Positions 15,380 to 59,439 of a stretch of DNA of 64,000 nucleotides are shown here, one piece after another. The stretch's first letter is position 1. Each line of letters begins with the position of its first letter. A program made the translations under genes and the position numbers. This stretch comes from Fistulifera solaris (Eukaryota). The stretch lies in assembly GCA_030295235.1 (NCBI GenBank), contig AP026153.1:558001-622000 (forward strand), read 5' to 3'. The notes beneath the pieces are model-generated. The model ran no database searches. It saw only the letters and a program-made list of their open reading frames with translations, and was not told the DNA's origin.

Positions 15380-15417
<38 letters not shown>
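15360..15417 (+). mobile_element. Severely 5'-truncated poly(A) retroposition
   Basis: AATAAA at 15360, A35 at 15383-15417, flanked by the direct repeat AACTTTG (15353-15359 and 15416-15422). Confidence 0.55.
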
Positions 15418-27869: not shown

Positions 27870-28826
27870 GTTGTATTTCTGTACCTTAAGAAGAAACTGT
27901 TAGTCAAGACAACATCCACAAGGGAGTCAAGGAACAGGCACGATACTTGCTTTTGTAGTTCTTTTCCTTCCCCGCTTACGATTTCTTATCGTTACGCACC
28001 TTTGTATTTTCTTCGGTCTGGTTATTTCAGCAAATGCAAGGCTATCAACTGTCAAGGATAGGACGAACTAAGAAAGGAATGACAATGATGCTGTTGTTGT
28101 GGATGCTTTTTTTCTTTTGTAACGCGTTCGTTTTGCGAGGAGAAAAAAAGAGCGTCTTGTTTTTCTCACTTCATTCGGGAACAGACGTACCGAGAACGGA
28201 CCATTCTTACGAATTCCTCTGTAGACGTAGTACTTAATTCGTGAATACTACTTCGTCGTTCGACCAAGTGCCTCTGCGCGAAAGACGCGCGCCCAAATGC
28301 CGGTCTATAACTATAACCTATAACCCCTACTTAATAACCACGACTTCAATTCAGTCATAAATCCAATTTCGACAAGGACAAGCTTGCATAAAATGCCATT
28401 TCACTATAGTCCAAAGAGTTAGTTCAAGGAAACCACGACTGCATTTCAGTCATGAACAAATTTTGCGAAATTCAAGCATGAGGTCAAACGATCCGATATC
28501 CGTCCTTTCTCCTGATGCCCTACAATCTCAAAATGACAGGTTTGGATTATAAGCAGCATTTATAATGCACAGAATAACTCCATTCGTCGAATATTCCTGC
28601 GGATCAAATCTTTGCATTTTACTATAGTCCAAAGAGTTAATTTATTGCGACTACGAATTAGTCTTTCTGTGTCCGAGCGGTGATGGCTTGATGCGAAAGA
28701 TACGAAAACGCCGAGATCCACAACAAGAACTTCTTTGGAGGCGATGTTCCGAGAACAAACATTAAACAAACTTGTCGTCTCAATCATTCATTGTATTCTA
28801 ATGTAAAGTACACAATAATTATTACC

Positions 28827-30304
28827 ATGACAAGCAGCAACAACACTGACAGAAAAGAGATTGACAGCGACGACTTTCATTTGTGGCAAGAAGCTGGGAA
28901 ACTCGTTCACATTTCTCTGCCTTCGGTGATTACCCAATTCAATCTTTACTTTATTTTTTCGCAATCGGCGTCTACCGTCGGACGGATGTTGGGAACGGCC
29001 GAATTGGCGGCATTTTCGTTGGGAAGTTTGGTCGGAAATTTGACCTGTTTGTCCGTCTTGGTGGGAGCCTTATCGGCTCTCGATACATTGTTGCCGCGCG
29101 CGTACGGTCAACAACACTATCGCGAATTGGGGCGCTTGTCGTTGCGCGCCATTGTGGCGTGTTGTGTGTTACTCGCGCCGGCTCTCATCGCCTTGTCGCA
29201 AACTGATTTCATGGAATTTCTGTTCGTGCAAATTGGAAAACAAGATGCGACCGTCGCCACATTGGCGGCACAGACGTGGATTCCCATTTTCTTATGGGGT
29301 GTGCCGGCCAATTTGCTCTTTCGTGTGGGACAACGATTTTTGGTCGCCCAACATCAACCGTGGCCGCCGACCTACGCGAGTCTCGTACCAACGTTACTGC
29401 TGCATCCCTTCTTTTGAAAGGACTCATTCCACTCTATGGCCTGTCCGGATCGGCGTACGCCATAGTCTTGACGCAATGGAGTACGTTACTGCTTTTAATA
29501 CTTTTCATGACATTGAATCCAACGCATCAACCCGAACCACTGCCAGCACTATTTTCACTGGCGTATTGGCAAGAATCACTCGCACTGGAACCCTTGGGAC
29601 AGTTCTTGCATTTGAGTGTCGGAGGTGTCGTCAGTTTGTCGGAATGGTGGTTTTGGGAGATCATGTGTTTTACCGCGGGTTCCTTTGGTGTGGTGGCCTT
29701 GTGTGCGCACACGATTGCGTACAACCTCATTCCCTTGTCGTTCATGATTGTACTGGGAACGCAGATTGGACTGTCGGTGCGTATGGGGACCTTGTTGGCG
29801 ACGCAACAGATCGATCATGCCAAGAAATTAGCAACTTGGACGATGGGAGTGATTGCGTGTACGGGCGTCGTGGCGGGTTGGGTACTGCACAGTTTGCGCC
29901 GGAACATTGTGTTGGTGTTTTCGAAAGATCCAGAGGTCATGGAAGTTACATTGGCCATTTGGCCCAAAGTGTGCTACTATATCTTTGTCTTGTTTATATT
30001 CGGAATCAATTCCGCAATTTTGCGGACACTGGGAATGCAGTGGCAAATGGCGGTGGTAGTTTTTACCTCCTTGTGGTGCTTCGCGCTGCCTCTCGTGTTA
30101 TACTTTGCCGTTTACCGAGGAGGTGGACTCGACGAACAGTGGGCTATCTTACCCATTGTTTACACGCTCATGCAAGTCTGGTTGGTGTTCACGTACGGCA
30201 CAAAGGATTGGAAACAACAAAGTGCACAGATTCAGCGCGTACGGACAGAAGGTGAATCGGTAACGAACGAACAATCCAAGCTTCTCGCCGGAATCGATTG
30301 CTAG
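28827..30304 (+). CDS. MATE efflux transporter; probable frameshift near 29415
   Basis: VGRMLGTAELAAFSLG, ALDTL...AYG, EWWFWE, SVRMGTLL, multiple TM segments. Confidence 0.9.
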
Positions 30305-30453
30305 TCTGCCTTACTGTTCATTTGGAAGTTTGGCCACTCATCGTCAACGAAAATCGTGTCATGCTCAAGTAAAAAATGATTACAGAAGTGTTTGAAATCT
30401 TGCGAAGAATAACAATTGATTAATAGAATTGATGGATTGAATTGCTACAAACC

Positions 30454-33348: not shown

Positions 33349-34242
33349 TAAGGACGTACCTGGTATAAAAATGTAAGGACGCTGGGCGCACGCACAAGCT
33401 CCGTGATAGATCCGTGTCACCCTGCCTGAGCGCTGAATCGCAGTCTGTTATCACACCGTTTTTTTGCCCATGTTATTTTTCGTACATGCGATAATTTCCG
33501 GACCCCAGTGGAGAAAACGAGCCTTCATTTACGTGAAAAAGCGCGCAATTTGGACCACAACAGAAACGATCTCTTTTGATCGAAATATGTATTGTTATTG
33601 TTATCTTTTAATCTACAAAGCTTCTATAGTCACTAGTTGAGGACAATGGAGAGGTCCGGTCGGAAAATACTTCTGTGGTCGACCGAAAAGGTTACAATTG
33701 AACAGTGCCTTCTCAACAATTCTCCAGCCCCGACCATGGGCAAGGTTCACACAACCAGCGGAACCGGTAAATGGCGATGGAGTTGATTAAACTGACAATA
33801 TAGCTTTTAAACTTCATTTTCCTATTAAAATATACAGGAGTTTATCCCCAGACGATTCAATAAGTGCATTTATAAAGGTAGGAGTGCATGCAATAACAGC
33901 CAAATTTCCTTAATGAGCCGCTATTTCATTGATTCCTGGAACAACAAGCATACCACAACATTCCAATATTATTTAAAGTAGATTAAAACAAAAATTAGAT
34001 TCAAAGATAGTTGAGAATCAATATAAAATAGTCGAATACAATATGGTCGGTTGCACGTGTTATTTCACGTAATGAAGATGCGTTTTCTCCTCCTCAGGTC
34101 CGGTAATTATCGCATGTACAAAAAATCAAGACGGGCTGTAGAAATGTACTAAAAAACGGTGTCATGACGGACTGGGATTCAGCGCTCAGGGTGTCAAAAC
34201 CTCCAGAAACGCTCCACGTCCTTACATTTTTATACGTCCTTA
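33349..34242. mobile_element. Non-autonomous DNA transposon, 894 bp, with ~200-bp imperfect TIRs and an 8-bp TSD
   Basis: Ends TAAGGACGTA...TACGTCCTTA; TGGCGGAG at both 33341-33348 and 34243-34250. Inverted similarity between 33349-33550 and 34050-34242; AT-rich core. Confidence 0.85.
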
Positions 34243-34274
34243 TGGCGGAGGAGAATGAAAAAAATGAAAAAGGT

Positions 34275-34995
34275 ATACAGATGCATTGTTACGAGTGTCT
34301 ACGCGAATTACACGTAGGCCCCCGTAGGGAAATTTATCGACAGAGGGGGCACCCGGATATTGTTCAATTCGACATCCTCCATTTTTTGAGTATGCCTGAC
34401 CGCAATGTCATGAAATACCCTGACATAGCATCAACCATTCTCACTGGTGAACAATAATTACAATCAGTTTGAAATCAAAGAGAAGAAAAGAGCGAAGATA
34501 CAATGGCTCGAATGTCTACGACGAATTCACGTAGGCCTCGTAGGAATTTTATCGATGCAGGTAGTAATTGGAACTCACTCATCGAATTCGGTCTCAATTA
34601 AATTCGGGTCCGCCGTCGACAAAGTTCGTTTCAACATACGCTGCATACATGCAAAGATCCCTTTACAAGAATGGACGTTGATTTAAGCAGAAAACATGAA
34701 AAGACAACAGATGCAGTGTTGCGAGTGTCTACGTGAATTTCACGTAGGCCCCCGTAGGGAAATATTTATCGACAGAGGGATACCCGGATTTAATCCAATT
34801 CGACATCATCCAATTTTTCGAGTATGCCTTACGGCAATGTCATGATATACTGACATGAAATCCACCTTTAGCACTAGTAAACGATGATTACAATCAATTA
34901 AATCAAAAGGTAGAAAAGAACGAAAATACAACGCTTCGAATGTCCACGACCAATTCACGTTGGCCACGTAGGAATTTTATCGATGCAGGTAAAAA
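34275..34995. repeat. Dispersed/tandem repeat family: ~430-bp dimer of ~215-bp subunits carrying a GTCTACGTGA-ATT-TCACGTAGGC palindrome
   Basis: GTCTACG...CACGTAGGC variants at ~34297, 34514, 34727 and 34942; 34280-34475 is repeated at 34710-34905. Confidence 0.85.
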
Positions 34996-35531
34996 TTCGA
35001 TATGCGGCCCCATCAATCTATGGAGGCCGGATATGCCAATGACGACTACGAATTGATGATCGATAGTAATTCTATTGCAGTGAAAGTTGAAAGCAACCTC
35101 TCTATTAGACGACGGCGAGCCTCTAGAAGCCGGGCGCCAGACGTCTAGAAATTCCAAAAACGCTACGCCGTATATCCATAGTTTCCGACTGTCGTACGTG
35201 CGTGGATCGTGAAGGATGTTTTTCGTTTCTGTCACAAAATTTGTCCTTCCGAATGTCCAGTGTCCAGTACTGGTACGAATTTATCACGACACTACTAAAA
35301 AGTGTAACCTACATCAATGGCCATAGTCATGGTTCAATGTTCAACTACACTTTACCCCTCACTCGATCCGTCGCTTTCTGCTTCCTTCGCTCTTCGCTGT
35401 TTCCTTTTCCATTCATCCGCAAAAGGCAAAAGACTGTTGCTTTTCATTTTGACGTCCTCGCTGCTTGTTTATTATTCATCGTGTTTGATTGTTTTTGTAT
35501 ATATAATCGTGTTTGTAAATAGTAAAAGGCC

Positions 35532-39733: not shown

Positions 39734-40523
39734 TGTGTGTTTGTTATGAAATATTATTTAAAAATGGTAATCAAAAATGAAATAAGGGAATAAAAGAAGA
39801 AGAGTTAAATACTGCATAGAAACGCGAACGGAGTTTAATAGAAACACATGAACAGCGTGTCGAGGCAAACGAAGGCAGCCAGCATTTTGGCGCAGCGGAA
39901 TATTTTTTTGATCTTCGCAAAAAGCATGCAACGCCAATGAAAACTCGAACCGAATGACACGCTGCGACGCTCGAGTGTGTCATTGCCTGTACCAACGATT
40001 TCGGTGTTTCCGAAAGGGCAGTAGAATAATTCAAAAACTGTTTAGACCTCCTGCGACCTACACTTCGACGCCGTGTTATTTCCTTGTTCGACGCCACTTT
40101 CGGAGCAAGAGAAAAAAGATCGCGACTTTCTTTTCTTCCCAAAACCATGGCGGAAGTTGTCCGCTCGCGTTGCGTCATCCAGTTATATCCGTCATCAAAA
40201 GCCATTGCCACGGAAAAGAGGATCCTTCCCGACAAGGTTCGACGACCATTCGTTATGCAGTGAATGGCAAATGTCACTCATCATGCATCTTTAAAAGCTT
40301 TCAATGGAAGCCAGAAGTTACGAAAGGACTGACCACGGTATAGCTCGCTCTCTCTCTAGCTCGTGACGAAAGGAGAAAATCCCGTATCCACTCTGGACTA
40401 TTATTTAGACAATGGAAAGGCAGTCGTCCGGCTCGATTTCGAGGTCAATTCTTGGAAGATGCAAAGGCAGCACAAAGACAAGAGAAGAGTTCAAGAACCA
40501 TGGAATATGCGAGAAACATCGCA

Positions 40524-40890
40524 ACGGTTGCACGATCATTGTAGCTCGTGACTGTAAATCCAGTCTTGACGAAAAACGGACAACAGTCTTTGAACGATAG
40601 CCATTTTAACGCAAATGCATCCGACCCGATTTTGGACCTTTTGAATCGAACTACCACTGCAAATGAAACTACAAAAAGCTTTCAAGTGCTTTGTTAATGA
40701 ATGTGCCAAATAAGAATGGCCATGACGTACTCGACACTTTCATAACGGTTGCAAGATCAGTGTAGCTCGTGACTGCAAATTCAGTCTTGACGAAAACGGA
40801 CAACACTTTGAACGATAGTCATTTTAACGCAAATGCATCCGACCCGATTTCGACCTTTTAGATCGAACTACCATTGCAAATGAAATTCAC
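40524..40890. repeat. Direct duplication of ~145 bp with a 221-bp period
   Basis: ACGGTTGCA.GATCA.TGTAGCTCGTGACTG...GCAAATGAAA at 40524 and 40745. Confidence 0.85.
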
Positions 40891-41249
40891 CAATGAATAG
40901 TCTTCGCAATTGGATAAGCAGAACGATAGAAGGATGAGAAAGAGCTTGACCACATGTACCGGTGCGGTGCCTCTGGCCTGTTACAAAGGACGCACGCCGA
41001 CCGTCAAATTACGCTTACTCACTCTTTTTCTTGAGCGAGCTAAAGCCCACAGCATAGATCCCTTTTAATGATATGTTTACACTGTGTTGTCGACAGAACA
41101 GGTTAGCTTCTATTCCTTGGTCATGATAATGCATTATTTATCCTTGCGAGTTCCATTCACTGGATTGTCGGCACAGCAACACATTCTACTGCTCTTCTAA
41201 AAATACTCTAACTCAAATGTTTTAATTGCATAATATATATTATAAAGAG

Positions 41250-41744
41250 CTATATTTCCTTGACTTGGGCATCCTTCGATATCGATGTCGGATCTTCAAT
41301 GCCCAGTGCTTGCAATACATCCGACAAGGACTCGACTTGACGTTGCAACGCCGCCGGCGGCTGCGCGGCCCGAATTTCTCCCGGTCGATCGACATATTCG
41401 AGAACCGCCATGTCGGCATTGTCTCCTTTGCGTCGTTGTGCCAATTTGAGGATGCGCGTGTAACCACCTTCGCGGAATTGGTACCGCGGTCCCAAGACGT
41501 TAAGTAGTTTGGTTTGTGCTTCTGCGGTTGTGACAATTTTGTTGATTTCGCGACGCGCGTGCAACGGATCGTTTCCTTTGGCTTTCGTAATGAGTTTATC
41601 GGCCAAGTAACGTGCTTCCTTGGCTTTGTGTGTGGTGGTGACGATGCGTTCGTGTTCGACGAGCGATGTCACCATGTTTTTCAACATGGCCCATTTGTGT
41701 GCCGGAGTACGACTGAGTTTGCGGAAATTAATGCCCTTGCGCAT
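41250..41744 (-). CDS. MRPL17: Bacterial-type ribosomal protein bL17 (organellar, probably mitochondrial)
   Basis: FRKLSRTPAHKWAMLKNMVTSLVEHERIVTT..KAKE, REGGYTRI, RRKGDNADMA. Confidence 0.93.
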   Translation of the reverse strand: MRKGINFRKLSRTPAHKWAMLKNMVTSLVEHERIVTTTHKAKEARYLADKLITKAKGNDPLHARREINKIVTTAEAQTKLLNVLGPRYQFREGGYTRILKLAQRRKGDNADMAVLEYVDRPGEIRAAQPPAALQRQVESLSDVLQALGIEDPTSISKDAQVKEI

Positions 41745-41928
41745 GATAATAGTATTAAATAATGACAATAGTTAATATTGAAGTGAAACACAAGAAGCTG
41801 TATGACTTGGATCATTGTGAAATGCGTTGATCGGCGGGGATATGGTGCTCTTTTTATTCATCGCGTTATTGCGCGTGACGCTAGATTGACGGGTGACGGT
41901 AGGACTGACAACGACAACTGACAACAGC

Positions 41929-43021
41929 AAATTCACTATAGGATGAAAGTGATGGTTCAAGCAATCCTTGACTGAACTTGAGTCACGATCGACATACGAA
42001 AATCGGCAACAATGAAGTCCACAAATGCTAACATTAAGTGTATGATCGATTGCATTGGTATTGACGGTGATGTTACGAAATATCTTCATTATTCAAAACG
42101 CAATGTATCGTTTCTAGGATCCGAAAAGCTTTCGCATGGATCACAGGAAAATTCACTATAGGATGAAAGTGATGGTTCAAGCAATCCTTGACTGAACTTG
42201 AGTCACGATCGAAATACGAAAATCGGCAACAATGAAGTCCACAAATGCTAACATTAAGTGTATGATCGATTGCATTGATATTGACGGTGATGTTACGAAA
42301 TATCATCATCATTTAAAACGCAATGTATCGCTTCTTGGATACGAAAAGCTTTCGCATCGATCACCGGCAAATTCACTATAGGATGAAAGTGATGGTTCAA
42401 GCAATCCTTGACTGAACTTGAGTCACGATCGAAATACGAAAATCGGCAACAATGAAGTCCACAAATGCTAACATTAAGTGTATGATCGATTGCATTGGTA
42501 TTGACGGTGATGTTACGAAATATCTTCATTATTCAAAACGCAATGTATCGTTTCTTGGATCCGAAAAGCTTTCGCATCGATCACCGGCAAATTCACTATA
42601 GGATGAAAGTGATGGTTCAAGCAATCCTTGACTGAACTTGAGTCACGATCGAAATACGAAAATCGGCAACAATGAAGTCCACAAATGCTAACATTAAGTG
42701 TATGATCGATTGCATTGATATTGACGGTGATGTTACGAAATATCATCATCATTTAAAACGCAATGTATCGCTTCTTGGATACGAAAAGCTTTCGCATCGA
42801 TCACCGGCAAATTCACTATAGGATGAAAGTGATGGTTCAAGCAATCCTTGACTGAACTTGAGTCACGATCGAAATACGAAAATCGGCAACAATGAAGTCC
42901 ACAAATGCTAACATTAAGTGTATGATCGATTGCATTGGTATTGACGGTGATGTTACGAAATATCTTCATTATTCAAAACGCAATGTATCGTTTCTTGGAT
43001 CCGAAAAGCTTTCGCATCGAT
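41929..43021. repeat. Tandem array of 5 x 220 bp with ABABA (440-bp higher-order) structure
   Basis: ATTCACTATAGG at 41931, 42151, 42371, 42591 and 42811; diagnostic variants alternate between units. Confidence 0.97.
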
Positions 43022-43364
43022 TTATCGTCGAAAAGCCTTGCGAAACGTTGTCTTTCCGTATTTAGGTCTACTATACGGATCGAAGTGTCGTCCGTTTTTC
43101 GCCACGACTGCACTTCAGTCATGAATCATTATTCTTTCGAGCTTCGAGCGACAATGTCACCTACAAGTACAATTCATTCGCTCAAGCAGATATTCTTGAG
43201 CCACATTAGCCGCTGTTGCAATGAAAAATCCTTAGCAGCGTATGCGTTACACTTTATATTTTGATAAAAAGTCTTGCGAAACGTTGCCTTCCATTTACTA
43301 TGGACAACGAAATCTCTATAGACCCATGGTAATGGTTCTCGGAGACCACGACTTCATTCAGTAT

Positions 43365-44900: not shown

Positions 44901-46071
44901 TAGAATAGACATGATAGTATTCCGACGATCATTAATTCAACCATTTGAAACACGCAATGTTTCTTTCTGGGTATTTCAAAAGCGTTAATTGGAGGCAATG
45001 AGCAAGTCCTGTCACCGGACTTGAAACATAGGCTAGAGGAGAACCGGGAATGTGGCTGGCGCTCAAATGAGGCGGAAACGTGGTGAAACGTAACCTTGTT
45101 GTAGTGATGCAATCAGCGGATTGACGTTATTCACAACTAATCGATCCTCAATGTCAAACGATATCATAGAAAATTATTATTTCTAAAAAGTGATATAACA
45201 TCCATGGGTAGGCATCGTCAGTGCCACAATCAATAGTTTCCACTTCCATTTCCGGGACTGAACGTTTAGTTGAGTCGGGTCTCCTGAAGTCCTCTCTTTC
45301 CGCTATAGTAAAAATCGATGAGATTCGATGAAATGATAAAAGAAGCTTATTCCTTGCTACAGCACGTTGAGCATCGACCCAACGATACCTGGTACACAAA
45401 TATATTAATAACATTACTTGATAGCATGCGCTGCTCTATAAAGTGTCTTACTTCGCCGAACATGGTAGCCCAAATACGGGACTGAAGCCAAACTGAGTCG
45501 GGTTTTGGTAGAACCAACACTTTACTTCATAGTAAAAATTGGTTCGAATCTACCTGAAATGAAATGCAATTAATGTCTAATCTTTGACAGACTTTAGTAA
45601 TTGGCAACACCCGACACTTTTGATACGTTCCTCATGCGTAGAGTATCGCCAGTGTCTTTAAACGATACGGTCAAAATTTCTAGAGCTCCGTATTTTTTTA
45701 GTTTCAGATAGGTAATGTCGCAGCAGTACCGATATTTATTGGTTTGTACATACGACTGACATGGAGTATTGCTTAAGAAGTTCATCCTAAATATTTTCCT
45801 CAACGTCAACGAACGGTGATATTTTATATAGTTGTCTCATTGGCTCGTTGTCGGTTGAGACAGGACAAACTTTGAATACGTAGACTGAAGTGTACTCCAA
45901 CATCCGTCGCATTTGTTGGAGGAAACGGTTGAAGAAGATGGAAGGAAAAAATGGCGCACCCGGAACCCAAAAATGGCAGGCGATCGCACCTCGATGGTTC
46001 CATTTCATTCGTCCTGGATTCATTCCACGAGTGTATGCGTTTCCTTCTAACACAACAATTATATCTAAAGC

Positions 46072-49095: not shown

Positions 49096-51303
49096 AATGA
49101 ACATTTTTATTCGTCTTTTGACTTTCACAGCTCTGCTGTCGGTCTCCCTTGCCGTCGAGCCGAAAAAGCTTCCGTCCTCGACGATTCTCAAGCAGGCCGG
49201 TTTAAAGGAAAATACTATTAAAAAGATTGAAACTGGCAAGCGATTGAACCGCACGGAACGAAAAGAAATTAAAGATGCCGAGAAAGCCCGCTACATTGAG
49301 CTCCGCAATGCCGGAGCCGATGAAGTCAGCAACACGGAAGAATCGATCGCTTTGCGCAATTACAAATTGAAAAATAAGAAGCGTAAAGGCCTTATTCGTA
49401 AGCGAGAAGCTACTTTGGCCGATATCTTGTTTCCGGGCGTTGCCGCGCAAGATTACGTTATCGGAGAGCCCATTGCCGTCTACACGGACGTTGTCGAATC
49501 TCGAAAACGTCCCGTTCCCTATGACTATTATGACTTGCCCGGATGCTCGCCTCCGATTGAGCCGGAATTCCGCAAAAGGTCCGCATGCGCAAAAATCTTG
49601 GTATGCGTTTGCAAGGCCGTGATCTCAAGGTCGCGCCCTTTGATTTCCGGGTCAAGAAGAACATGGGGTGCACTCCCATGTGCTCGCACGTTTTGGATTC
49701 CAAGAAGATGCGCTGGATGCGTCGGCTCATTGCCGCGCAGTACCGAGTGCAATTGGAGTTGGATCAACTTCCGGTTCTCATGCGCAGTAAGGACTACAAC
49801 TACGCCGTCCGCGGTTACCCTCTCGGTTTCATCGCACCCGAAAACTTTCACGGTTTGCGTCCGGGCGAGTATTATCTCTTCAATCATTTGCGCTTTGTTG
49901 TCACGTACCACGAAGATCCTGCGGAATTCACGGGTGTCCGTATTACGGGATTTGATGTACACCCCGTGTCGGTCAAGCACCAATTTGCGGAAGGCCAAGT
50001 CTCCGAAGTGACGGGTGGGCGGCAAGTGCCACCGTTGACGACTTGCAACGGTCTCGTCGACAACGACCCGGCCATGTACTTGGAATTGAAAACTCAGGGA
50101 GGTGGCTTACGAGTGGTGTATTCCTATGAAGTGGAATGGATCGAGTCCGAGTTGCCCTGGAGTGATCGTTGGGATGTGTACTTGATTGGAACACCGGACG
50201 ACGAGTTGCATTACTTTAGCATCGTCAACTCGTTGATGATTGTTCTTTTCTGACAGGAGCCATCAGTACCATCATGATCCGAACGCTCAAGAAAGACATT
50301 GCAACCTACAGTGAGATGGACGCACTGGAAGATGGCATGGAAGAGACCGGTTGGAAGTTGGTCCATGGAGATGTGTTTCGCCCTCCACAATTCAATCCCA
50401 TGCTTTTGTGTGTGCTGGTGGGAAATGGTGGACAAATTGGCGCCGCATTTGGTCTCAGTATGCTAGCGGGTGTTCTCAAAATGCTCAATCCCATGCAGAA
50501 GGGTCAAACTTTGACGTGTCTTATCATTCTTTACGTCTTGTGCGGAAGCGTGTCGGGATACACCAGTGCTCGCTTGTACAAGTACATGGATGGAAAACGC
50601 TGGAAAATAAACATCATTTTGACGGCCGTCGGATTACCGGGAATTCTTGTGTCGATCTTCATTTTTCTGAATATTTGGTTGAGCTTCGCTGGGGCCGCCA
50701 CTGCTGTCAGTATTTTCACTATCATCAAGCTGTTTCTTCTCTGGGCACTCGTTTCCACACCGCTTGTTTTCCTTGGAGGCTTTATCGGATTCAAGGTCGA
50801 TCGCATCGAAGTCCCTTGCAAGGTCAATCAGATTGCTCGGGTAGTACCTCTGGTACCGTGGCACGTGCAACCACACGCCACTTTTTTCATGGGTGGTATT
50901 TTGCCGTTTGGAAGTGTTTGCATCGAACTGGCTTTCATCATGAGCGCCTTGTGGCTGCACCAAATCTATTACGTCTTGGGCTTCTTGCTGATTGTCTGGC
51001 TCATTCTAGTTGCAACATGCGCTCAAGTTTCTATTGTCCTCACCTATTTGCAGCTATGTGCGGAAGATCACCGCTGGTGGTGGAACTCGTTTTGCAATGT
51101 TCCTCTGCGGGTTTGTACCTGTTCCTTTACAGCTTGTACTTTTGGTCAGCCGTCTGGAAATGGTTGGAGTGTTGCCGGTCGTTATATATTTGACATACAT
51201 GGGCATGATTAGTTTGTGCTTTGCTTTGGTTTGCGGTAGCGTGGGTTTCTTATCCGCATTCTGGTTCACCAAAACGATCTACTCGGCGGTCAAGATTGAT
51301 TAA
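49096..51303 (+). CDS. TM9SF: Nonaspanin/TM9SF (EMP70) family protein; several probable frameshifts (~49578, ~50248, ~51100-51145)
   Basis: FNHLRF, WSDRWDVYL, HYFSIVNS, EETGWKLVHGDVFRPP, GGILPFG, EDHRWWW, C-terminal IYSAVKID. Confidence 0.92.
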
Positions 51304-51483: not shown

Positions 51484-53400
51484 CTACAAAGCGATATTCC
51501 AATCCCCTTCGTGATAATTTTTCTCGTTAATTTCAGCCCATTCCATTCTCCACTGGTAAAGACTCACTTGCATGTCTGTCGGAGACTTCCTCTTGTTCCT
51601 CTGTGTGTGGCTCAACGCGTTCAGGATTTTTCTGCTTCTGTTTGAATAAGGCAATTCGTTGCAAAAGAGAAAGATTTTCATTTCTGGATGATGCTGTAGT
51701 GGTACTACTGCCAGTCGTCGAACTTAGGTCTTCATCACAGATGACATGTGATTCCACCGGTTGCTGCTGTTCCACTTTCAATTGCTCCAACAACTCTTCT
51801 TCTCGGCAAACCTGCTCGTTCTGCTCCAAAATAATTTGTGCGACTTGCTCTTGTGTCCATATTCTTTCTCGCTGATTTACAATAGTCAAATAGCGATGTA
51901 ATTCTTGTCCAAACTTGATGTATCCGGAATACTTTTCTCCTTCGATACAAGTTCCTCATAAATCACACGAAGCTGCTGCGCTTGGTCACAGGGACTTCCG
52001 GATCGAATGGATTGTACAGTATTACTAATATTCTTCACTTCCAATACCATTAAAGCAGCTGACATGGCACCACCCGCGAATCGCATCGCCCGTGCTCCTC
52101 GCATTAGGTTCATCGATGTTCGTGTCATCCACCGAGCTCCTTGACTTCCCGCTTGACTGCCCATTTCAGCACTCACCGCCGTACATCGCCCCAAAGATGT
52201 CAATCCAGCAGCACTGAGCATGACACTTTTCTTTTGGTCGAGTGCTTGCTGGAATTCGGGGTCTGAAAAGTGACTGTGGGCGCTTGGATCGTCCTGATAG
52301 AAATCCGACCGCACATGCTCGCGCATCATGGCATCGCGCAGTATACTTGTAATGTGCAAAATATTCCACAACATGCTGTGCAACGCCAGAATGCGTTTGG
52401 CCAGTTGTTGTGGTTCCGAATAATAATGCATCGCATCCGAACCGGTTTGAACCGCCGTGGATCCTCCTCCAAACAAAAGACTCGCCACGAGCAACGGTGG
52501 ACCGACGGGTGTCAAAATAGTCGCTGCCGCCGCAATCCCCAATGCCCCCGATACCATTCCTACACTGGAACTGCCCAAGCCAATTTTGTTTTGGCGTTGC
52601 TTGGACTGCTCCAATTGCTCCGCAACGGTGGGAATGTACTGTGACGAGTACGTCAGTAACAGGACGACTCGATCATAGACATCCAGTAAATGATCCAACG
52701 ATTGTTTTCGCTTGTCGTGTTGTGGTTCTGTCAAAAGTCAATCACAAATTGCAACCCAAACAAGTGTTGACATTCGAGACAGACGGTTACACCTTCTGCG
52801 GAAAAGTCGGGAGAGGCATGCTGTTTACAGACGAGCGTTCCACAAATGAGACAGGGAGGTGATTTCGGTCGCTTCCGTTCACTGTGAATGAACTTGGAAA
52901 TGCGCGGAAAGCGACTTGTCGTTGTTGCTGTTGATGTATCTGTAGATGGGGCTATTTCCTTTTCGTTGTTATCGTTCGTTTCATAGCCATTTTTCTCTTT
53001 TTTCTTCTCCTGCGGTTGGCGCTATTGACGATGTTTCTTTTGTGTCGACACAGTCGTCGGCTACTATTTCTTGCTGCTGCTGCTGCTGCTGCAATTGCAA
53101 CGCCCATTTCGAAAGACGAGGAAAGCGCGCCACATTCGAAGTACCGAATTTCTCGGAAAGTAAACATGTCGTACAACAGGCATCATCATACAATACGCCA
53201 TTCGCATTGCATTGCAATTCCAAATTCAGTTTGCGCATCGTTTCGAGTGCTTCATAAGCGCTGTTGATGCCCTGCGTCGCGTTGGTACGATGGTCGGTGT
53301 TCATGTGATTCGATGATGATGACGATAAGGAAGCAATACCATCGTCATCATCATGATCATGCTGCTCCTGTCGCTGCTGCTGGGCATCGCTTGTCGTCAT
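51484..53400 (-). CDS. Protein with a FYVE-like Cys/His finger and an apolipoprotein-L-like domain; several probable frameshifts
   Basis: CTTC...PCLICGTLVCKQH...VCLEC (read across frameshifts near 53000 and 52735). Then GLGSSSVGMVSGALGIAAAATILTPVGPPLLVASLLFGG and RFAGGAMSAALMVLEV...IRSGSPCDQAQQLR. Confidence 0.55.
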
Positions 53401-53564
53401 TTTCGACTCTTGACTTTGTAAGGGTAAAAACAAGTGGCTACGTGACGAGATTAAATTGCTTGCCTGCTTTGAAAACGAAGGAATGAATGATCATGCTCTT
53501 ATCTTACTCGTTGGCTCTTGTGGCTTCCGAATGAATGGAAAATAAATATTGCGCTCATCGCTCA

Positions 53565-53875
53565 TCCTGACCATCATGTTTTACTATGATCCAAACAGTT
53601 GGTTATACTAGTCCACGACTGGAGACTGCATCAATCCTTTTGTATGTAGAGCCTGCAGCGCGCATTTTTTGCCTTTTTCGCGTTTGATTATCGTCTCATT
53701 ACAATAAAAGATCTAAAGCTAGATCTAATTATGCTCTCACCTTGGAATTTCGCGCAATTCCGGATGCTGACCTTCATGTTTTTACTATCATCCAAACAGT
53801 TGGTTGTACCAATCCACGGCTGGATTTCAGTCATGAGTCTGCATCAATCCTTTTGTACATGCAGCCTGCAGCGCG
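53565..53875. repeat. Direct duplication (~200-bp period) with a third partial copy at ~55100-55155
   Basis: CATGTTTT(T)ACTAT(G/C)ATCCAAACAGTTGGTT at ~53576, ~53775 and ~55107. Confidence 0.8.
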
Positions 53876-54399
53876 AGAATGTTCCCCGCAGGCGGCTAGT
53901 ACAAAATAATCTGAGCGGTGGACCGGGCCATGCTGTACCTCAAAATGCACTATCGTTCCAAATGTAGGCGGAAGGCGATCTTTGTGACTGAATCTCAGTC
54001 ACGATACTAAGAACGATGTTCGTACGTAAGGTCCGCATAGTGTGTTCCACAACTCTTTTGACATCGCTTTGTTGCTTCACATACTGTGGAAGGCTATTTA
54101 CGTTGCCAATAAGCGTTGTATTCGGACCGATGTCGAAGAAACTTATCCAAGAGCTAGTCGATGAAGATTTACTATGCTGCAACTTGTAGATTACTTTTTG
54201 CACGACTGGATGTCAGTCACGAGACAAAATGAGCCTCAGAGCAGCCGCAGATGCAGCAACAAAAAAAAAAAAAAAAAAAAAAACAACACAAAGTACAGCC
54301 TTTAATTTACTGGATCCATTGAAGCAAGAAATGACCAAACAATCCATTCAAACAGTATCAGTCGAACCATCGGCGCTGTTGTGTATCACGCAACACTCG

Positions 54400-55082
54400 G
54401 CCGAATTTCTGTATAACGCGAAACACCGATTCCAGAATTTCTGGAAATAGCACTTTCTTTCGTTATGATCAAAACACAGTTTTCAGAGAATCTGGAACGT
54501 AAAAGGCTTTCGTCGTCGGGGGGTTGGGAGTTCGAGTCGGGCGAAAGAAACTGATATCGAATCCTCCCTCGCCACCACCATCACACGTGGCAAATGTGGT
54601 GTTCTGCTTTAATTTCCGCCGTTTACACAACGCTTCTACTGGGTTGAGGATCTGCTTTCTGCTGGGAGATGGGCGTTCGGATTCCGTAGTAATGTAGTAT
54701 AATCAATTTAGTAGTAAAGAGGCTAGATGGGTCTATGTTGTCAGATTGCAGACGTCCCCGTCAGGGTTGATATCTCTGGTCTGGCATCGCCCGTTGGAGC
54801 CAGGTTGACACACACTCCGGTAGGATCCCAAACACCGTTTCCGGAATTTTGGAACTTGCACAGCATTTCGGTACAGGTAGAATCGAAACAACGGGTCCAG
54901 AATTTTTGAATCTCCACAGAATTTCTGTAAAGCACAGCATTCCGGTAGGATCCCAAACACCGTCTCCAGAAATTTCGGAACGTGCGCAGCATTTCGGTAG
55001 GATCGAAAGAACTGGTCCAGAATTTCTGGACCACCACAGAATTTCTGCTTTACGCGAAACACCTATTCCAGAATTTCTGCCG
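54400..55082. repeat. CAGAATTTCTG palindrome arrays split by a ~310-bp unrelated segment
   Basis: TTCCAGAATTTCTGGAA, GGTCCAGAATTTCTGGACC and CACAGAATTTCTG; ~125-bp internal duplication at 54815-55050. Confidence 0.8.
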
Positions 55083-55230
55083 AATATGTCTTCGAGCCCT
55101 GACCTTCATGTTTTTACTATGATCCAAACAGTTGGTTGTATAAATCCAAGACATACTTATTTTTTTTTCTTCGTTTTTTCGATACAACCCGCAATCATTC
55201 ATTTCATTTCGTAGTCTAACAATACTTCTT

Positions 55231-56907
55231 ATGATGAAACGTCGCCGTATTCATCAAAGACTTCTCGTCTTCGTTATATTTTGCTGTTGTGCTGTTATGC
55301 ATCATGCCTTTCTTTTGCAGAGGCTATCACAACAAGATCCACAAAGCAGTCTTTTGTGGAGACAAACGCCGATCACAGCGACAGCCGATCAAGGAAACGA
55401 TACTTTGATTATGAACTCGTTTCTTACAGAATTACAAGCCTCAATTCAACAGCAGACGTTCTCTTCCATTACACTCTATGGACCATCCAAGGCGACTTTA
55501 AAAAAGATTGCCGATACCGAGCAAACGCGTGGTTGTTTGATTCGTATCACCGGCCGTCTGATTCAAAGCAAAAACAGTAATAAAAACGGCAACAAAAAGA
55601 CCACTCGTCCTTCGACTCAATTGCAAGTCACTTACAAGTACCATTTGGCGACCGACATTGTCAAGAATTGGTCTTTATCGAGTGTGTCACAGTCAATTCA
55701 ATCGTTATTGCTATGGACGACTTTTACGTCAAAAAGTGACAGCAACAACAATTCTCTTCTTCTCGACTCTAGTGTTGTCATTCCTTCGGAATGGGGGAAT
55801 CCGACACCACAACAATCGCAACTCGGATTACATACCGCCACGTTGGAAACCACAACCGCACGATATCAATTGGATTTGCGATCCAAAACGCTATCGCGTC
55901 ACGAAATAAGCAGCACTGCTACAACTCACACTCCACAACCACACGATCGCTCCAAAGCCGTTCCTGTGTCTTCCGAGGCACCCATGTGGCAAGCTTTGGG
56001 TATATTGAATGAGCAAGGCAAACCTCGTCTCAACATGGCTTCCAAATACAAACAATGTCAAACTTTTGTCCAATTGTTGGCACAGCGGATCCCGTTCGGG
56101 TCCGAAACGCCCTCCGAAAAGCCAAACAAGATTACCGTCACGGATATGGGTTGTGGAAGAGGTTATTTGACATTCGCCTTGCATCATTACTTGTCCGAAC
56201 AGCAACAAAAACACGACAATTCATTTACGGTGCATTCGATCGGAATGGATGTTCGACCCAAGTTAGTACAAGAAATACAAGGCATTGCGGATCGGTTGGG
56301 ACCACCGTTTGATACGTTGCAGTTTATGACGAGTACGATTGAAGAGTACACCTCCACCCTGCGAACACCGGATGAGGACCAGGGTGACGACTATCAGATT
56401 TTGATGGCGTTACACGCGTGTGATACCGCCACCGACGATGCCTTGTTTGCAGGAATCCAACAAGAAATGGATTTATTGGTAGTCGCACCCTGTTGTCATC
56501 GGCAAATTCGACCTCAATTGGACGCCTTTCATGTCCAACAAAAGCAACAACACGCTCTGTCGGATGTGTGGCAATACAATATTTATCGGGAACGACACGC
56601 GGAAAGTGTGACGGATACTTTGCGGGCTTTGTTGTTGGAATGGGCCGGCTATCAAGTACAAGTCTTTGAATTCGTTGGTGGTGAACATACGAGCAAGAAT
56701 GTCATGATTACGGCCGTACGGACTGCTGCGGCTAGAAGAAGGAAGAAGGATGATGATGAGTTGGAGCAACGCATTCAATCTTTGGCCGCGTTTCATGGAA
56801 TTCATCAACACGCACTGGCGCAGCATTTGGGCTTTGCGTTAATACCTGGAAAAGACGTTAGCAAGGAGACGGCGAAGAAACGATCGAAATATGGATTTCC
56901 GCAATGA
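55231..56907 (+). CDS. Class I SAM-dependent methyltransferase (Methyltransf_32-like) with N-terminal signal/transit peptide
   Basis: VTDMGCGRGYLTFAL, ALHACDTATDDAL, APCCH, TDTLRALLLE, EFVGGEHTSKNVMI. Confidence 0.85.
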   Translation: MMKRRRIHQRLLVFVIFCCCAVMHHAFLLQRLSQQDPQSSLLWRQTPITATADQGNDTLIMNSFLTELQASIQQQTFSSITLYGPSKATLKKIADTEQTRGCLIRITGRLIQSKNSNKNGNKKTTRPSTQLQVTYKYHLATDIVKNWSLSSVSQSIQSLLLWTTFTSKSDSNNNSLLLDSSVVIPSEWGNPTPQQSQLGLHTATLETTTARYQLDLRSKTLSRHEISSTATTHTPQPHDRSKAVPVSSEAPMWQALGILNEQGKPRLNMASKYKQCQTFVQLLAQRIPFGSETPSEKPNKITVTDMGCGRGYLTFALHHYLSEQQQKHDNSFTVHSIGMDVRPKLVQEIQGIADRLGPPFDTLQFMTSTIEEYTSTLRTPDEDQGDDYQILMALHACDTATDDALFAGIQQEMDLLVVAPCCHRQIRPQLDAFHVQQKQQHALSDVWQYNIYRERHAESVTDTLRALLLEWAGYQVQVFEFVGGEHTSKNVMITAVRTAAARRRKKDDDELEQRIQSLAAFHGIHQHALAQHLGFALIPGKDVSKETAKKRSKYGFPQ

Positions 56908-57532: not shown

Positions 57533-58181
57533 GTTTGCTGTTACTGTGCTGTTGTAACTTATTTAGGATGTAATAAACGCCGTTCAAATCAATTTTGAGA
57601 AGAAGTGAATGAATGCCGCACAGTGAGGTAGGCGCCCGTCATTTATTTTTTTGCCACCAAGAAAGAAAAAGGCGCCAAAGGAGGCGGTGCCGAGGCACTT
57701 AAACATAAACCGTATTTTGTGTTTTCACTAATGCAAATGAAAACCATTTCGCCAGCATGACTCCATTTATTAGTAGGCTTGTGAATGTTGACACAAGAGG
57801 AAGGCTTAGCTCTCTACCCAGTAACCTCAATCGACATATAATAATTGATTAATATGAATAATCAACATCCAATCCCGATGACTGTACTCTAGTGCTTAAA
57901 TGGGCCGGAACAGTATTGCGATACGCTATGTTACTATGGTGCTGGCAAGAGTCACGACTGTAGTAGGGTGATTGGATTCTTCACAAACAATAGTAACCTC
58001 CCACACTGCATCGCACATCGCACCGTTCCGACTCAAGATATTAGCAATGCGTTTTTGTTCCGTCAAAAAAGTCCACGATGATTTTTCAATTTCATGACCA
58101 GCCGATGCATAAGTCGAGTCTTCAGCCCAGCAGTACCTTCTTTACAGTACATCGTAGCTCGACAAATGAGTTTTTTCATCA

Positions 58182-59113
58182 CTAGTTCTCTGTACATGTC
58201 AAATCGACGCGGATTAGGTCAACGGCAATGTCCCGTGATTTATCTTTGTGAAACTTGTACACTTGTGGCAAATCAAATTGCATCTCCGCTACCACATGGA
58301 AGGAATATCCCCACGCCGTCACTTGTTGTTGCAAAAACGCTCTCGTCGATGTCTTGTGAAACGAATATACCGTCCGTCGAGCCAAACGACAAGCCGTACG
58401 TAAAAATCTCAAATCCATACCCGCATTTTGTTTCGTCCCAAAGGGTGGATTGGTTAATACAGTATCGACGCAATTCGAACGGAGAAGGACGCCGTCTTCG
58501 TCCTCAGCAATCAGTTGTCGTGTTTCCAGTGTCGATGCTTGAATCGTATTCGTTTTCGGTGGTGGGCGACGTTTATTGTTGCTTTTGTTGCTAACCTTTG
58601 TTGTTGACGAAGTAACTGACGCCACTTGCGCATGAATCCACTCGACCGCCGTCTCCAATTCCATGTCTTCAAAATTTTCTTTCGCTAATTGCAAGGCATC
58701 GGGATCGCAATCTAACGCCAACACAAGATCCGTCTCGACAAGAGCACAGCCCAGTGTCAACATGCCCGTACCACAGCCCAAATCCAAAGCGGTCGTTCCT
58801 GGACCCAAATCGCCGCGCTCCAAAGCCACCAGTATCACCGACGCCGTCAGCGAAGGACTGGTCGGATATTGTTCGAGTGTTATCTTCAATAATACAGGGA
58901 ACGAACAGCACGCATGAGGAAACACGTTGTACCGTTATCATAAAAAAACGACTTTTCATTAAACGAAACGAATCAAAAGAAGCGTATAAAATGATAATGA
59001 TTATTGCTATCGAACATGGAATACATTTGCGGGTCGCTGCACTTGCTTACCTTGGGATCCGGAAATTCTCGCTGAATGCTTGACAGCGCGGACTCTAAAT
59101 GTTTGCGCTTCAT
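58182..59113 (-). CDS. METTL5: METTL5-like N6-adenine methyltransferase; intron 58884-59050
   Basis: Exon 1 MKRKHLESALSSIQREFPDPK splices to ITLEQYPT; DLGCGTGML, NPPFGTK, YSFHKTSTR, YKFHK..S.DIAVD. Confidence 0.92.
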
Positions 59114-59439
59114 TTGTTATTCAAAATTATACAAATAAATATACTCAACTGTTGCATTTGTTGTTATTATGCTCGTCACTTCTCACAGTCTTCGTTCAGC
59201 TCGGAAAAAAATTCGTTTAAGGATCGATAGCGCGCCTCTTTGTGATTGATTCACCACTATTGGCCCTAATGTAGATTACTTTTCACCACGAGTGCATTTT
59301 GGTCATGAGTCAGAGTTCATCATCCATTTTTTGGGTATAATTGGATCGATATGCCAAGCTACCATAAACCCACATCGCTCCTTGGTCATAATCGATAATA
59401 TTCACAGCCCATCTGCAATCTAAATGTTGAAAATAAGCA

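Follow-up and report, generated by a model that had tools for sequence, protein, structure and literature searches.

Short-array satellites in euchromatin are represented by the 1.688 family of Drosophila and by TCAST1 of Tribolium. The Tc1/mariner superfamily has several kinds of non-autonomous derivatives: Stowaway-type MITEs; IR/DR elements, in which each long terminal repeat offers the transposase two binding sites in direct orientation; and foldback elements, with terminal repeats from which satellites such as Tetris/TIR-220 arose. According to PMC9860276, DNA transposons show a preference for nucleosome-free or linker DNA. For Fistulifera solaris, the available portions of two sources describe MEME-derived "centromere/ARS" motifs of 41-50 nt that recur along chromosomes (10.1101/2021.11.10.468027) and TABASTA, a degenerate 7-mer promoter motif present in thousands of promoters (PMC5935921).

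The motif analysed here makes up the conserved head, 56 bases long, of a ~220-base non-coding repeat family that is undescribed and lies between diatom genes. Most likely the family consists of satellite-like or transposon-derived DNA and is not an RNA gene. A full-text literature search found no paper describing the 56-bp module.

The two-box module and its genomic setting

We built an nhmmer profile from 10 seed copies and ran it against the window, the whole 64-kb stretch of DNA analysed. About 25 copies were found; they occupy 12 of the 29 intergenic intervals, and ORF spans hold none, though ORFs make up 61% of the window. Twenty matches scored at least 10 bits, and six of these belong neither to the seed set nor to the satellite. 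When the window was dinucleotide-shuffled 30 times, the top score was 10.6 bits, and a match of at least 10 bits occurred in one shuffle. Profile hits are thus well above the shuffled background with which the preliminary description had proposed to compare them, and the dispersed motif it reported is real.

The module spans ~56 bp with sharp edges (TTACTAT..CAAAG.GT, ~15 nt, CACGACTG-N5-CAGTCAYGA) and contains two boxes: box A, TTACTAT..CAAAG.GT, and box B, the imperfect palindrome CACGACTG-N5-CAGTCAYG. The conserved stretch runs from -3 of ACTAT to 8 nt past CAGTC; outside these limits (before -3 of ACTAT, after CAGTCAYGA) pairwise identity equals the background of 0.2-0.35. GACTG-N5-CAGTC occurs four times in the window vs. 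0.10 expected. In 9 of 14 copies ACTAT and CAGTC are offset by 44-47 bp, and the spacer sequence between varies by subfamily. CTAT is invariant in 17/17 copies and GTC in 14/14, an invariance that is partly ascertainment because the same boxes were used to find the copies. TA precedes CTAT in 9 of the 17, including both arms around the transposase relic discussed below. Many copies are partial, with box A only, box B only, or internal indels. Copies and associated features are as follows (position in the window, strand, description):

6438..6508, plus: core copy with a longer box-B loop, spacer subfamily TGTAGATTAC (nhmmer 11.8 bits, non-seed)
9844..9866, minus: box-B-only copy of the CCGACTCA...TTCAGTCCCG type (box-B profile 14.5 bits)
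12345..12426, plus: degenerate core and 33 bp of inner flank, forming the left arm of the inverted repeat that encloses the transposase relic
12609..13493, minus: 5'-truncated Tc1/mariner-superfamily transposase gene (DDE_3, homologues, tblastn)
14398..14503, minus: core copy that has a short spacer and, with its inner flank, forms the right arm of that inverted repeat (nhmmer)
23013..23073, minus: full core copy in opposite orientation to an MFAP1-like gene, whose ATG it precedes by 47-107 bp (nhmmer 23.8 bits, non-seed)
28336..28361, plus: box-B-only copy (box-B profile 10.0 bits)
28398..28463, plus: full core copy (nhmmer 50.0 bits)
28616..28655, plus: box A and degenerate box B, 218 bp after the preceding copy (nhmmer 14.5 bits, non-seed)
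34259..35000, plus: second array of the ~216-bp related family, heads at 34297, 34514, 34727 and 34942, spaced 213-217 bp
40538..40607, minus: full core copy within a 146-bp direct repeat whose identity to 40744-40885 is 91%, the intervening 75 bp being unrelated (nhmmer)
40760..40825, minus: full core copy, partner of the preceding copy (nhmmer)
41927..43021, plus: satellite of five 220-bp units, one core each (TRF)
43065..43132, plus: full core copy, edge unit of the satellite array, spacer subfamily GTCGTCCGTTTTTCG; upstream, -40..-15 resembles the satellite unit end (nhmmer 40.8 bits)
43297..43362, plus: degenerate copy interrupted by an insertion, at 227 bp from the preceding copy (nhmmer 8.6 bits, E 0.11)
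45250..45315, minus: core copy of the CCCGACTCA...TTCAGTCCCG type (nhmmer 32.0 bits)
45473..45540, minus: core copy, 224 bp from the preceding copy (nhmmer 41.1 bits)
53577..53633, plus: core copy without the right half-site, spacer subfamily AGTTGGTT (nhmmer 37.9 bits)
53779..53843, plus: full core copy (nhmmer 50.3 bits)
53948..54004, plus: core copy (nhmmer 16.7 bits, non-seed)
54165..54227, plus: core copy, spacer subfamily TGTAGATTAC (nhmmer 20.9 bits, non-seed)
55111..55152, plus: box-A-only copy, followed by TATAAA and, at 115 bp, by the ATG at 55231 (nhmmer 24.5 bits, non-seed)
59252..59316, plus: core copy joined to a ~216-bp family array, with which it is in phase (nhmmer 40.1 bits)
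59417..59935, plus: ~216/432-bp related repeat array, heads GTCTACGTGAAT.CACGTAGGC

All but one of the copies first listed proved real, the one at 57933 being unsupported (nhmmer 3.1 bits); that at 43297 is degenerate, and those at 28621 and 55116 retain mainly box A. The motif had been placed within 28300-59315, a confinement that does not hold: the full or near-full copies added here include three outside it, at 6438-6508 (+), 14443-14503 (-) and 23013-23073 (-), together with those at 53948-54004 (+) and 54165-54227 (+), and further additions are the box-B-only copies at 9844-9866 (-) and 28336-28361 (+) and the degenerate copy at 12345-12426 (+). Its presence in "most large intergenic regions" comes to 9 of the 17 intervals of at least 600 bp (6 of 10 in the original range).

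The setting of the copies bears on whether the module is a host cis-regulatory or architectural element, a reading that we hold to be unlikely. The two boxes would then form a putative composite site for host factors, and arrays phased at ~21 helical turns would give order to the chromatin of promoters, whether as an enhancer, a boundary or an origin or by phasing nucleosomes; the module may have been repeat-derived and then co-opted. All copies are non-coding, 10 of the 12 copy-bearing intervals are divergent or tandem and hence contain a gene start, and at five loci the nearest copy lies 47-230 bp before the ATG; the box spacing, fixed over an unconserved spacer, and the constancy of CTAT and GTC, discounted for ascertainment, point the same way. 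Relative to genes, however, the copies are randomly oriented (in tandem intervals, 2 point the same way as the genes and 3 the opposite way), no function unites the neighbouring genes, one copy sits in a 3'-3' interval, and many copies have lost one box.

A small non-coding RNA gene, or an snRNA-type promoter (upstream element plus TATA-like) driving variable small RNAs, is very unlikely. The conserved head, variable downstream sequence and small tandem arrays do recall snoRNA/piRNA-type loci, and a T-run was seen by eye within 30 nt past the core in ~4 of 14 copies. Against this, there was no Rfam match at gathering score in the whole window, no related Rfam family in either 40300-45800 or 53400-55300 with E allowed up to 10, and no tRNA found in the search. 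The sole consensus helix is a 5-bp hairpin with no compensatory pairs and six broken cells, ten copies fold at z from -2.72 to +0.72 into differing structures, and neither a conserved terminator nor a downstream gene at a fixed distance accompanies the copies.

Spacing, satellite array and the ~220-bp phase

Distances between neighbouring copies are 218, 218, 220 (four times), 255, 227, 224, 201, 165, 222 and 945 bp, and most copy pairs are direct rather than inverted. With satellite-internal distances left out, 5 of 9 fall within 215-230 bp vs. 0.27 expected, a range picked post hoc with the data already seen; none of 20,000 random placements reached five. The pairing at ~220 bp noted earlier is thus confirmed. 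This phase is kept where only 28-146 bp of the paired units are alike, so simple tandem duplication followed by neutral decay is inadequate to explain it. The persistence of the phase across unalignable DNA would also suit a host element.

The satellite at 41927..43021 has a period of 220 bp, 5.0 copies and 96% matches by TRF, with cores at 41930, 42149, 42370, 42590 and 42810 (+). It contains a 440-bp higher-order repeat (identity 99% at 440 bp vs. 96% at 220 bp), and its edge units are degenerate. Variable columns number 0/56 in the core vs. 11/164 in the body (P = 0.07), which hints at constraint and possibly at a host function. The family is kin to a second one of ~216 bp: copy 59256 aligns to the heads of that family, at a phase of 433 = 2 x 216.5 bp.

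Could the copies be only the scattered, decaying remains of an old ~220-bp satellite whose head no protein reads? Core conservation would then come from ascertainment, the first copies having been chosen by eye for ACTAT and GACTG..CAGTC, from short gene-conversion tracts between neighbouring units and from recent shared ancestry. The degenerate edges of the live array, the kinship with a second satellite of similar period and the equal divergence of core and flank in the 40.6-kb pair agree with such a history, and the many partial copies fit decaying repeats. We nevertheless consider it quite unlikely: the spacer is saturated across subfamilies, yet the boxes and their 44-47 bp distance (9/14) persist; conservation stops sharply at both ends; the profile recovered six non-seed copies; and the phase holds within ~10 bp despite unalignable bodies, whereas neutral indels should blur it.

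The arrays and box B have also to be weighed against a site-specific recombinase, with box B (inverted arms, a ~7-bp central spacer, G-AATTT-C) as the attachment or crossover site where small circular units integrate. Integration would yield head-body-head loci and arrays of n bodies with n+1 heads, and both layouts resemble what is seen: box B is laid out arm-spacer-arm, head-body-head loci exist, and the five bodies of the array are succeeded by one more head, which belongs to another subfamily. GAATTTC-centred palindromes number 11 vs. 0.36 expected, and occur in two other repeat families here as well. This is still the least probable of the readings, and a very improbable one: no recombinase gene lies near any copy, the central spacer differs by copy (CATTT, CACTT, GATGT, AATCT and others), which would be intolerable between recombining partners, and the duplicated pair segments of 28-146 bp extend to both sides of box B, which homologous exchange fits better.

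Spread by copying and the transposase relic

Spacer subfamilies are common to loci up to 53 kb apart. The spacer TGTAGATTAC(T)TTT is found at copies 6442, 54171 and 59256, GTYGTCCGTTTTTCG at 43070, 40601 and 40819, and the CCCGACTCA..TTCAGTCCCG type at 45309, 45533 and 9844; such common non-consensus spacers at separate loci show descent by copying, not convergence. Bodies are co-dispersed as well: 14504-14628, the 125 bp upstream of the copy at 14398..14503, is homologous to 28488-28605 (73% over 152 bp, E 3e-9). Upstream flanks are common to copies 53583, 53784 and 55116 (19 bp), 40601 and 40819 (67 bp), and 14495 and 28621 (125 bp), so the copied unit does not in every case have the core as its outer end. 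The claim that flanks differ while the core persists holds at the family level but not for subfamilies sharing longer flanks. In the DNA-like run X1, depth was several-fold higher over 43030-43662 and 53158-54423, and contigs from elsewhere join box B copies.

In the youngest local pair, 40601/40819, the 56-bp core has 5 changes, the 64 bp upstream of it likewise 5 and the 25 bp downstream 2, the core being no less diverged than its flanks. Absence of extra core conservation in this pair, and spread by copying as seen in the subfamilies and co-dispersed flanks, both weigh against a host element. The protein-binding cis-element (chromatin organiser, origin or boundary) first suggested is compatible with the box spacing, the ~220-bp phase and the absence from ORFs, but at odds with this pair, the random gene orientation and the many partial copies. 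Of the two original readings the other, an old ~220-bp satellite/MITE remnant, is better supported. A classical MITE is rejected, since neither terminal inverted repeats nor consistent target-site duplications were seen by eye around single 56-bp modules.

Inverted copies at 12345-12426 and 14398-14503 bracket the gene at 12609-13493, and positions 12394-12426 are 97% complementary to 14398-14430 in inverted orientation. The gene encodes the C-terminal 300 aa of a transposase (motifs DNAGGH and SPETNMLD), keeping only residues ~229-540 of ~570-aa relatives; the DDE_3 match of its product (E 0.0029) is under the Pfam cut-off. There are 174 homologues, mostly on 1-4 kb contigs, and among 10 full-length relatives HTH_Tnp_Tc3_2 was found in 7 and DDE_3 in 2. 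Of the two arms, the left is degenerate; what is best preserved in them is the inner 33 bp rather than the terminus, and no inner site was detected in them. This is the only transposase-flanked pair seen in the window, and its gene has no N-terminal half.

The explanation we favour, and to which we would give about an even chance, is that the repeat family resembles a satellite, probably derives from a transposon and carries a head that serves as a protein-recognition module. The ~56-bp head would belong to ~216-220-bp non-coding units, probably descended from a DNA transposon and spread by copying as DNA, and would not act as a structured RNA. Local exchange between direct-oriented heads would produce the head-body-head pairs, and the same exchange could have homogenised the five-unit array at 41927-43021; copies reaching new intergenic sites would account for spacer subfamilies common to distant loci. 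Both boxes would be the part recognised by a putative DNA-binding protein, most likely the transposase of a Tc1/mariner-type element, as suggested by the inverted pair, which forms ~105-bp repeats around a truncated gene of that type. On the whole, the interpretation offered in the preliminary description is partly supported.

Comparison with described systems

TABASTA touches the module in one place: its reverse complement, TA[CG]T[ACG]TA, includes TACTATA and overlaps box A in TTACTATA copies. As far as its available description goes, it matches some copies only and does not describe the 56-bp two-box module, the phase or the arrays. One of the "centromere/ARS" motifs of F. solaris in the available text contains CGACTGAATTT, as does box B. 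When the three published consensus motifs in that text were aligned locally, in both orientations, to 17 copies, mean scores were 13.5-17.9, and random window segments gave means of 14.5-15.3 (sd ~3); the second published motif and a 15-nt piece of the first had no meaningful match in the window. Identity with these motifs, in the form available, is rejected, the scores being at random-segment level; they are not the same element.

The locus differs from Tc1/mariner derivatives in that the window holds one instance only, with a 5'-truncated gene, single copies show neither a second inverted end nor a clear target-site duplication, DNA beyond the supposed terminus is common to some copies, and no inner site was detected in the arms. 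Like such derivatives, it has a truncated transposase between ~105-bp inverted copies with the core at their outer ends, and TA before CTAT in both arms and 9/17 copies; its direct pairs, at ~220 bp, are reminiscent of the inner and outer sites found in IR/DR ends.

From the euchromatic short-array satellites the family departs in that mostly only ~56 bp of the ~220-bp unit can be aligned between loci, and in that its pairs are head-body-head rather than full dimers. It resembles them in having a fixed-period unit present as one homogenised array and many scattered arrays of 1-4 units, in the degenerate array edges, and in a conserved box inside a fast-changing unit.

A conserved module of about 56 bp

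In motif-anchored profiles, pairwise identity between copies leaves background (0.2-0.35) at position -3 of ACTAT and returns to it 8 nt past CAGTC. These sharp edges at both ends define a family-level module of ~56 bp (the core, or head, of a longer unit), close to the ~55 bp estimated in the preliminary description. Its 5' part reads TT(T/C)ACTAT, N5, CAAAG, N, GT(T/A)G(G/A)TT, followed by ~12-15 variable nucleotides and then a 3' part, C(C/A)CGACTG-N5-CAGTCA(T/C)GA; we call the ACTAT end box A and the palindrome GACTG-N5-CAGTC box B. CTAT is invariant (17/17 aligned copies), as is GTC (14/14), and in 9 of 14 copies ACTAT and CAGTC are offset by 44-47 bp. By eye, the internal box B is the sole inverted repeat inside the module.

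An nhmmer profile seeded with ten of the copies first proposed was searched against the 64-kb window and found all but one of those listed. The copy claimed at 57933 did not hold up, scoring 3.1 bits; that at 43297 stands in degenerate form, and those at 28621 and 55116 are reduced mainly to box A. Further copies from this search lie at 53948(+), 54165(+), 6438(+), 23013-23073(-), and 14443-14503(-), all missing from the preliminary list, as were three partial or degenerate ones.

Partial and degenerate copies missing from the preliminary list
9844-9866, minus strand: copy with box B only
28336-28361, plus strand: copy with box B only
12345-12426, plus strand: degenerate copy

Background frequency of profile hits had been proposed as evidence against the motif, and the hits lie well above it: the window holds 20 hits of at least 10 bits, and such hits occurred in 1 of 30 dinucleotide shuffles (top score 10.6 bits). 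Six of the 20 are neither seeds nor units of the satellite, the five-unit 220-bp array at 41927-43021(+). A metagenome scan for CCACGACTG-N5-CAGTCATGA returned unrelated sequence at all 10 loci listed (GC 0.45-0.69, without box A), and a viral scan gave two matches, identical to each other and unrelated to the module.

The module is a feature of the DNA rather than a structured RNA, since covariation and Rfam or ARAGORN matches are absent and the folds are weak and unlike one another. RNAalifold gave a single 5-bp helix with compensatory double changes at 0 of 5 pairs and six broken cells, and the folding z-scores of ten copies (-2.72 to +0.72) were on average no better than those of shuffles, with differing shapes. 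Rfam at gathering score found no snRNA, snoRNA, or ribozyme in the whole window, where ARAGORN found no tRNA gene; at E up to 10, neither tRNA, 5S, or 7SL nor hammerhead, twister, pistol, hatchet, or HDV-like ribozymes appeared in 40300-45800 and 53400-55300. A small-RNA gene or snRNA-type promoter is very improbable: snRNA and snoRNA matches at gathering score are lacking and identity on both sides of the core is at background. A tRNA-derived SINE was rejected for want of a tRNA-like head in either ARAGORN or the Rfam scan of the two regions, and a ribozyme-bearing satellite or retrozyme for want of a self-cleaving motif in those regions and, at gathering score, in the window. The AAAG|GT after ACTAT had prompted a spliced-leader RNA gene as a candidate, but the would-be exon varies and there is no common Sm-type site; nor is the AG after ACTAT kept, as a micro-exon or splice site would require. 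An upstream ORF starting at the ATG in CAGTCATGA was rejected because half of the copies have ACG there. The satellite unit also contains TCACTATAGG, which resembles a phage T7 promoter and which we take to be a chance likeness.

Copying, spacing, and arrays

Most loci are alike in the ~56-bp core alone. Two sets depart from this: 14504-14628 and 28488-28605 resemble each other, as do the satellite and its edge units 43070 and 43297 over ~25 bp upstream. In the first of these, the 125 bp upstream of the copy at 14495 resemble the body (the rest of the ~220-bp unit) between 28403 and 28621 (73% over 152 bp, nhmmer E = 3e-9). Nonconsensus spacers are also common to loci far apart: TGTAGATTAC(T)TTT is shared by 6442, 54171, and 59256, and GTYGTCCGTTTTTCG by 43070, 40601, and 40819; the box B variant CCCGACTCA/TTCAGTCCCG recurs at 45309, 45533, and 9844. 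Common spacers and co-travelling flanks point to descent by copying.

Distances between neighboring copies are 218, 218, 220 (four times), 255, 227, 224, 201, 165, 222, and 945 bp. With satellite-internal distances excluded, 5 of 9 fall within 215-230 bp (expected 0.27), a range picked post hoc, and none of 20,000 random placements reached that number. The array at 41927-43021 is a tandem satellite, head to tail with constant period (TRF: period 220, 5.0 copies, 96% matches), and is homogenized with a 440-bp higher-order repeat; its two edge units have degenerated and are members of other subfamilies. The locus at 40.5-40.9 kb consists of two 146-bp segments (91% identical) with 75 bp of unrelated DNA between them, a structure that lacks the TG..CA ends of an LTR. 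The other pairs share stretches of just 28-112 bp. Shared stretches so short, with unrelated DNA between them, imply that the pairs are head-body-head structures rather than simple 220-bp duplications. Body-against-body identity of pairs, scored leniently with a null of ~0.59, is little informative, each such locus having one body.

The copy at 59256 heads an array of a second family (34259-35000 and 59417-59935), whose heads, GTCTACGTGAAT.CACGTAGGC, lie 213-217 bp apart. This family forms a ~432-bp tandem repeat of two ~216-bp half-units, each headed by the palindrome CTACGTGAATTTCACGTAG and then GGCC.CGTAGG.AAT.TTTATCGA. The ACTAT of 59256 sits 433 bp (2 x 216.5) ahead of the ACGTAGG in the 59689 head, and the heads align; the two families appear to be diverged relatives of equal period. 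The DNA-like sequencing run X1 shows a several-fold excess depth over motif-rich bins, and box B copies are linked by contigs of this run that derive from other parts of the genome.

Several other repeats share the intergenic DNA. Arrays of the palindrome CCAGA(A/T)TTTCTGG lie at 2901-3617, 10914-10960, 14637-15299, 43460-43636, and 54432-55080, with periods of 34, 66, and ~120 bp (TRF) and 32 matches vs. 0.23 expected; the T-rich center is always on the plus strand, except that four near-symmetric sites are also hit on the second strand. Over 54424-55056, X1 depth reaches ~845 vs. ~20 elsewhere, so this family is high-copy. The arrays often adjoin ACTAT copies, and the two are linked in contigs from other loci. 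The palindrome resembles a heat-shock element, with different spacing; a heat-shock-element reading of the CCAGAWTTTCTGG arrays was set aside, their spacing being one base off the canonical form. GAATTTC-centered palindromes with arms of 3-10 bp number 11 window-wide vs. 0.36 expected (e.g., 8137, 10855, 14640, 15053, 34735, 54435, and 55020), and on the plus strand the center is GAATTTC in 11 of 11 and GAAATTC in none. A foldback or MITE-like element of ~870 bp occupies 33363-34235, its inverted arms of ~180 bp consisting of several blocks that are 85-93% complementary. Near-pure or pure A runs of ~35 nt (15383-15417 and 54258-54292) are intergenic and lie alongside repeat families.

A transposase relic and the class of element

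The closest pair of copies between loci lies in inverted orientation, with 97% complementarity between 12394-12426 and 14398-14430. These two stretches form the inner 33 nt of two arms (12345-12426 and 14398-14503), whose outer part is degenerate; there a looser likeness runs through the core as far as TTACTAT in each arm. Both outer ends have TA before CTAT, and the 2,159 bp from end to end would suit a full-length element of Tc1/mariner type. The arms enclose 12609-13493(-), which codes for 300 C-terminal residues of a transposase, with the motifs LVMDNAGGH and SPETNMLD; the N-terminal half is absent. DDE_3 matches this relic at E = 0.0029 (17.9 bits, under the Pfam cut-off of 28.6), and among ten full-length relatives (480-605 aa) HTH_Tnp_Tc3_2 was found in seven and DDE_3 in two. 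Its 174 homologues are mostly on contigs of 1-4 kb. In public annotation the relic is a hypothetical protein of 328 aa (P0004, 99% identical), and relatives in its family are numerous on short environmental contigs, mostly without Pfam assignment.

Inverted arms around the relic and TA at their ends make a Tc1/mariner-type origin of the head plausible, judged from this one decayed instance. Before CTAT, the 17 copies have TA in nine, CA in six, and G(A/G) in two; no repeated dinucleotide was seen at the other module boundary when a target-site duplication was sought by eye. Counting against a terminus, some copies share DNA beyond the supposed end. ORF 13645-14268 was considered as a substitute N-terminal domain and rejected as an orphan, without a profile match and with a single homologue (95% identical and presumably from the same species), which shares its public contig with the annotated form of the relic. 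A long arm of IR/DR type left of the relic was likewise rejected, 12100-12345 being unlike the bodies at 28.4 and 14.5 kb. At 43806-44897, paired copies converge on an ORF from both sides, and this encodes a membrane-type protein unlike the transposase. No further transposon proteins adjoin copies in the window; ORF 293-1123(+), with an RVT_1 match under the cut-off (E = 2.5e-5), is probably a retroelement relic.

Other element classes fit poorly. The ends of the module, TTACTAT and CAGTCAYGA, are by eye not complementary, so it is not a MITE by terminal inverted repeats. As to filled and empty sites, none of the joints listed for the sequencing-run contigs removes a copy. Helitrons and Helentrons have 5'-TC, 3'-CTRR, and a hairpin 10-12 nt from the end; here, by eye, a hairpin exists but is followed by AYGA(G) instead of CTRR, and on the opposite strand the ends are TC...ATAG, and the hairpin is not at the end that requires one. 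An introner-type element is contradicted by the absence of all ~25 copies from ORF spans. A recombinase attachment site, for which the palindromic box B might speak, is scarcely probable.

Position among genes, constraint, and known systems

The window is gene-dense eukaryotic DNA, and on an ORF-based gene map confined to it the ~25 copies occupy 12 of 29 intergenic intervals; ORF spans, 61% of the window, contain none. Copies are found in 5 of 8 divergent, 5 of 12 tandem, and 1 of 9 convergent intervals, and in the occupied convergent interval one flanking "gene" is the transposase relic. Within tandem intervals, orientation agrees with the genes at two loci and opposes them at three, which argues that the module is not a directional core-promoter part of the adjoining gene. 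The neighboring genes have no obvious common function.

Sequencing runs X3-X5 resemble RNA, since they cover exons only and show a minus-strand GT-AG joint at 58883/59051. None of their contigs falls on 43030-43662, 44929-45561, or 53791-54423, a blank uninformative on expression. One X3 contig links 53759 with 55086 and is probably a homoeologous or repeat-confused piece. Elsewhere, the methyltransferase gene at 58185-59150 has a GT-AG intron of 167 nt (58884-59050, minus strand), spanned by one contig each of X3, X4, and X5. Over the EMP70 gene (49963-50800), contigs of X1 and partly of X3-X5 differ at ~24 of 638 nt, many third-codon-like, consistent with a homoeologous gene copy of an allopolyploid.

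Evidence on constraint is mixed. In its favor, the boxes and the distance between them survive while the spacer is saturated between subfamilies, and variable columns of the satellite number 0 of 56 in the head vs. 11 of 164 in the body (Fisher P = 0.07). Against it, changes in the young 40.6-kb pair are as many in the head as in the flanks, and a box is lost in many copies; moreover, it was through the boxes that the copies were identified. A cis-regulatory or chromatin element of the host, which may have been co-opted from the repeat, would draw on the former observations and on the occupied divergent intervals, and with the mixed orientation in view we think it unlikely. A purely neutral relic would account for the latter and leave the surviving box distance aside; we find it improbable.

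We give about an even chance to a satellite-like, probably transposon-derived repeat family in which the head is a protein-recognition module and arrays are seeded by head exchange: direct heads ~220 bp apart would undergo unequal exchange and so generate arrays. The ~220-bp phase without conserved DNA between copies is the sole feature that ordinary satellite decay leaves unexplained. An unlikely further reading is a domesticated, phased DNA-binding platform, with two boxes 44-47 bp apart and ~21 helical turns (216-227 bp) between copies. The DNA between copies would then change freely while spacing is held, and arrays in the promoter-side DNA of this compact genome might fix the phase of nucleosomes, form boundaries, or serve as replication-initiation sites; a GAATTTC-centered palindrome at a ~216-bp period would be common to at least one other repeat family.

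F. solaris is an oil-producing allopolyploid diatom used in biotechnology. If the repeat-family reading is true, a family of whose motif full-text literature searches gave no description seeds 220-bp arrays in promoter-holding DNA at about one locus per 5-6 kb of the 64-kb window. Such elements can shift transcription-factor sites, change the expression of adjoining genes and homoeologous gene copies, mislead motif discovery in promoters, and mark subgenome history.

Two known systems of this species invite comparison. The three centromere/ARS motifs of F. solaris (10.1101/2021.11.10.468027) align to module copies at null level and have no matches, or no more than expected by chance, in the window; they are not the same element. 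The TABASTA promoter 7-mer of F. solaris (PMC5935921) overlaps part of box A only.
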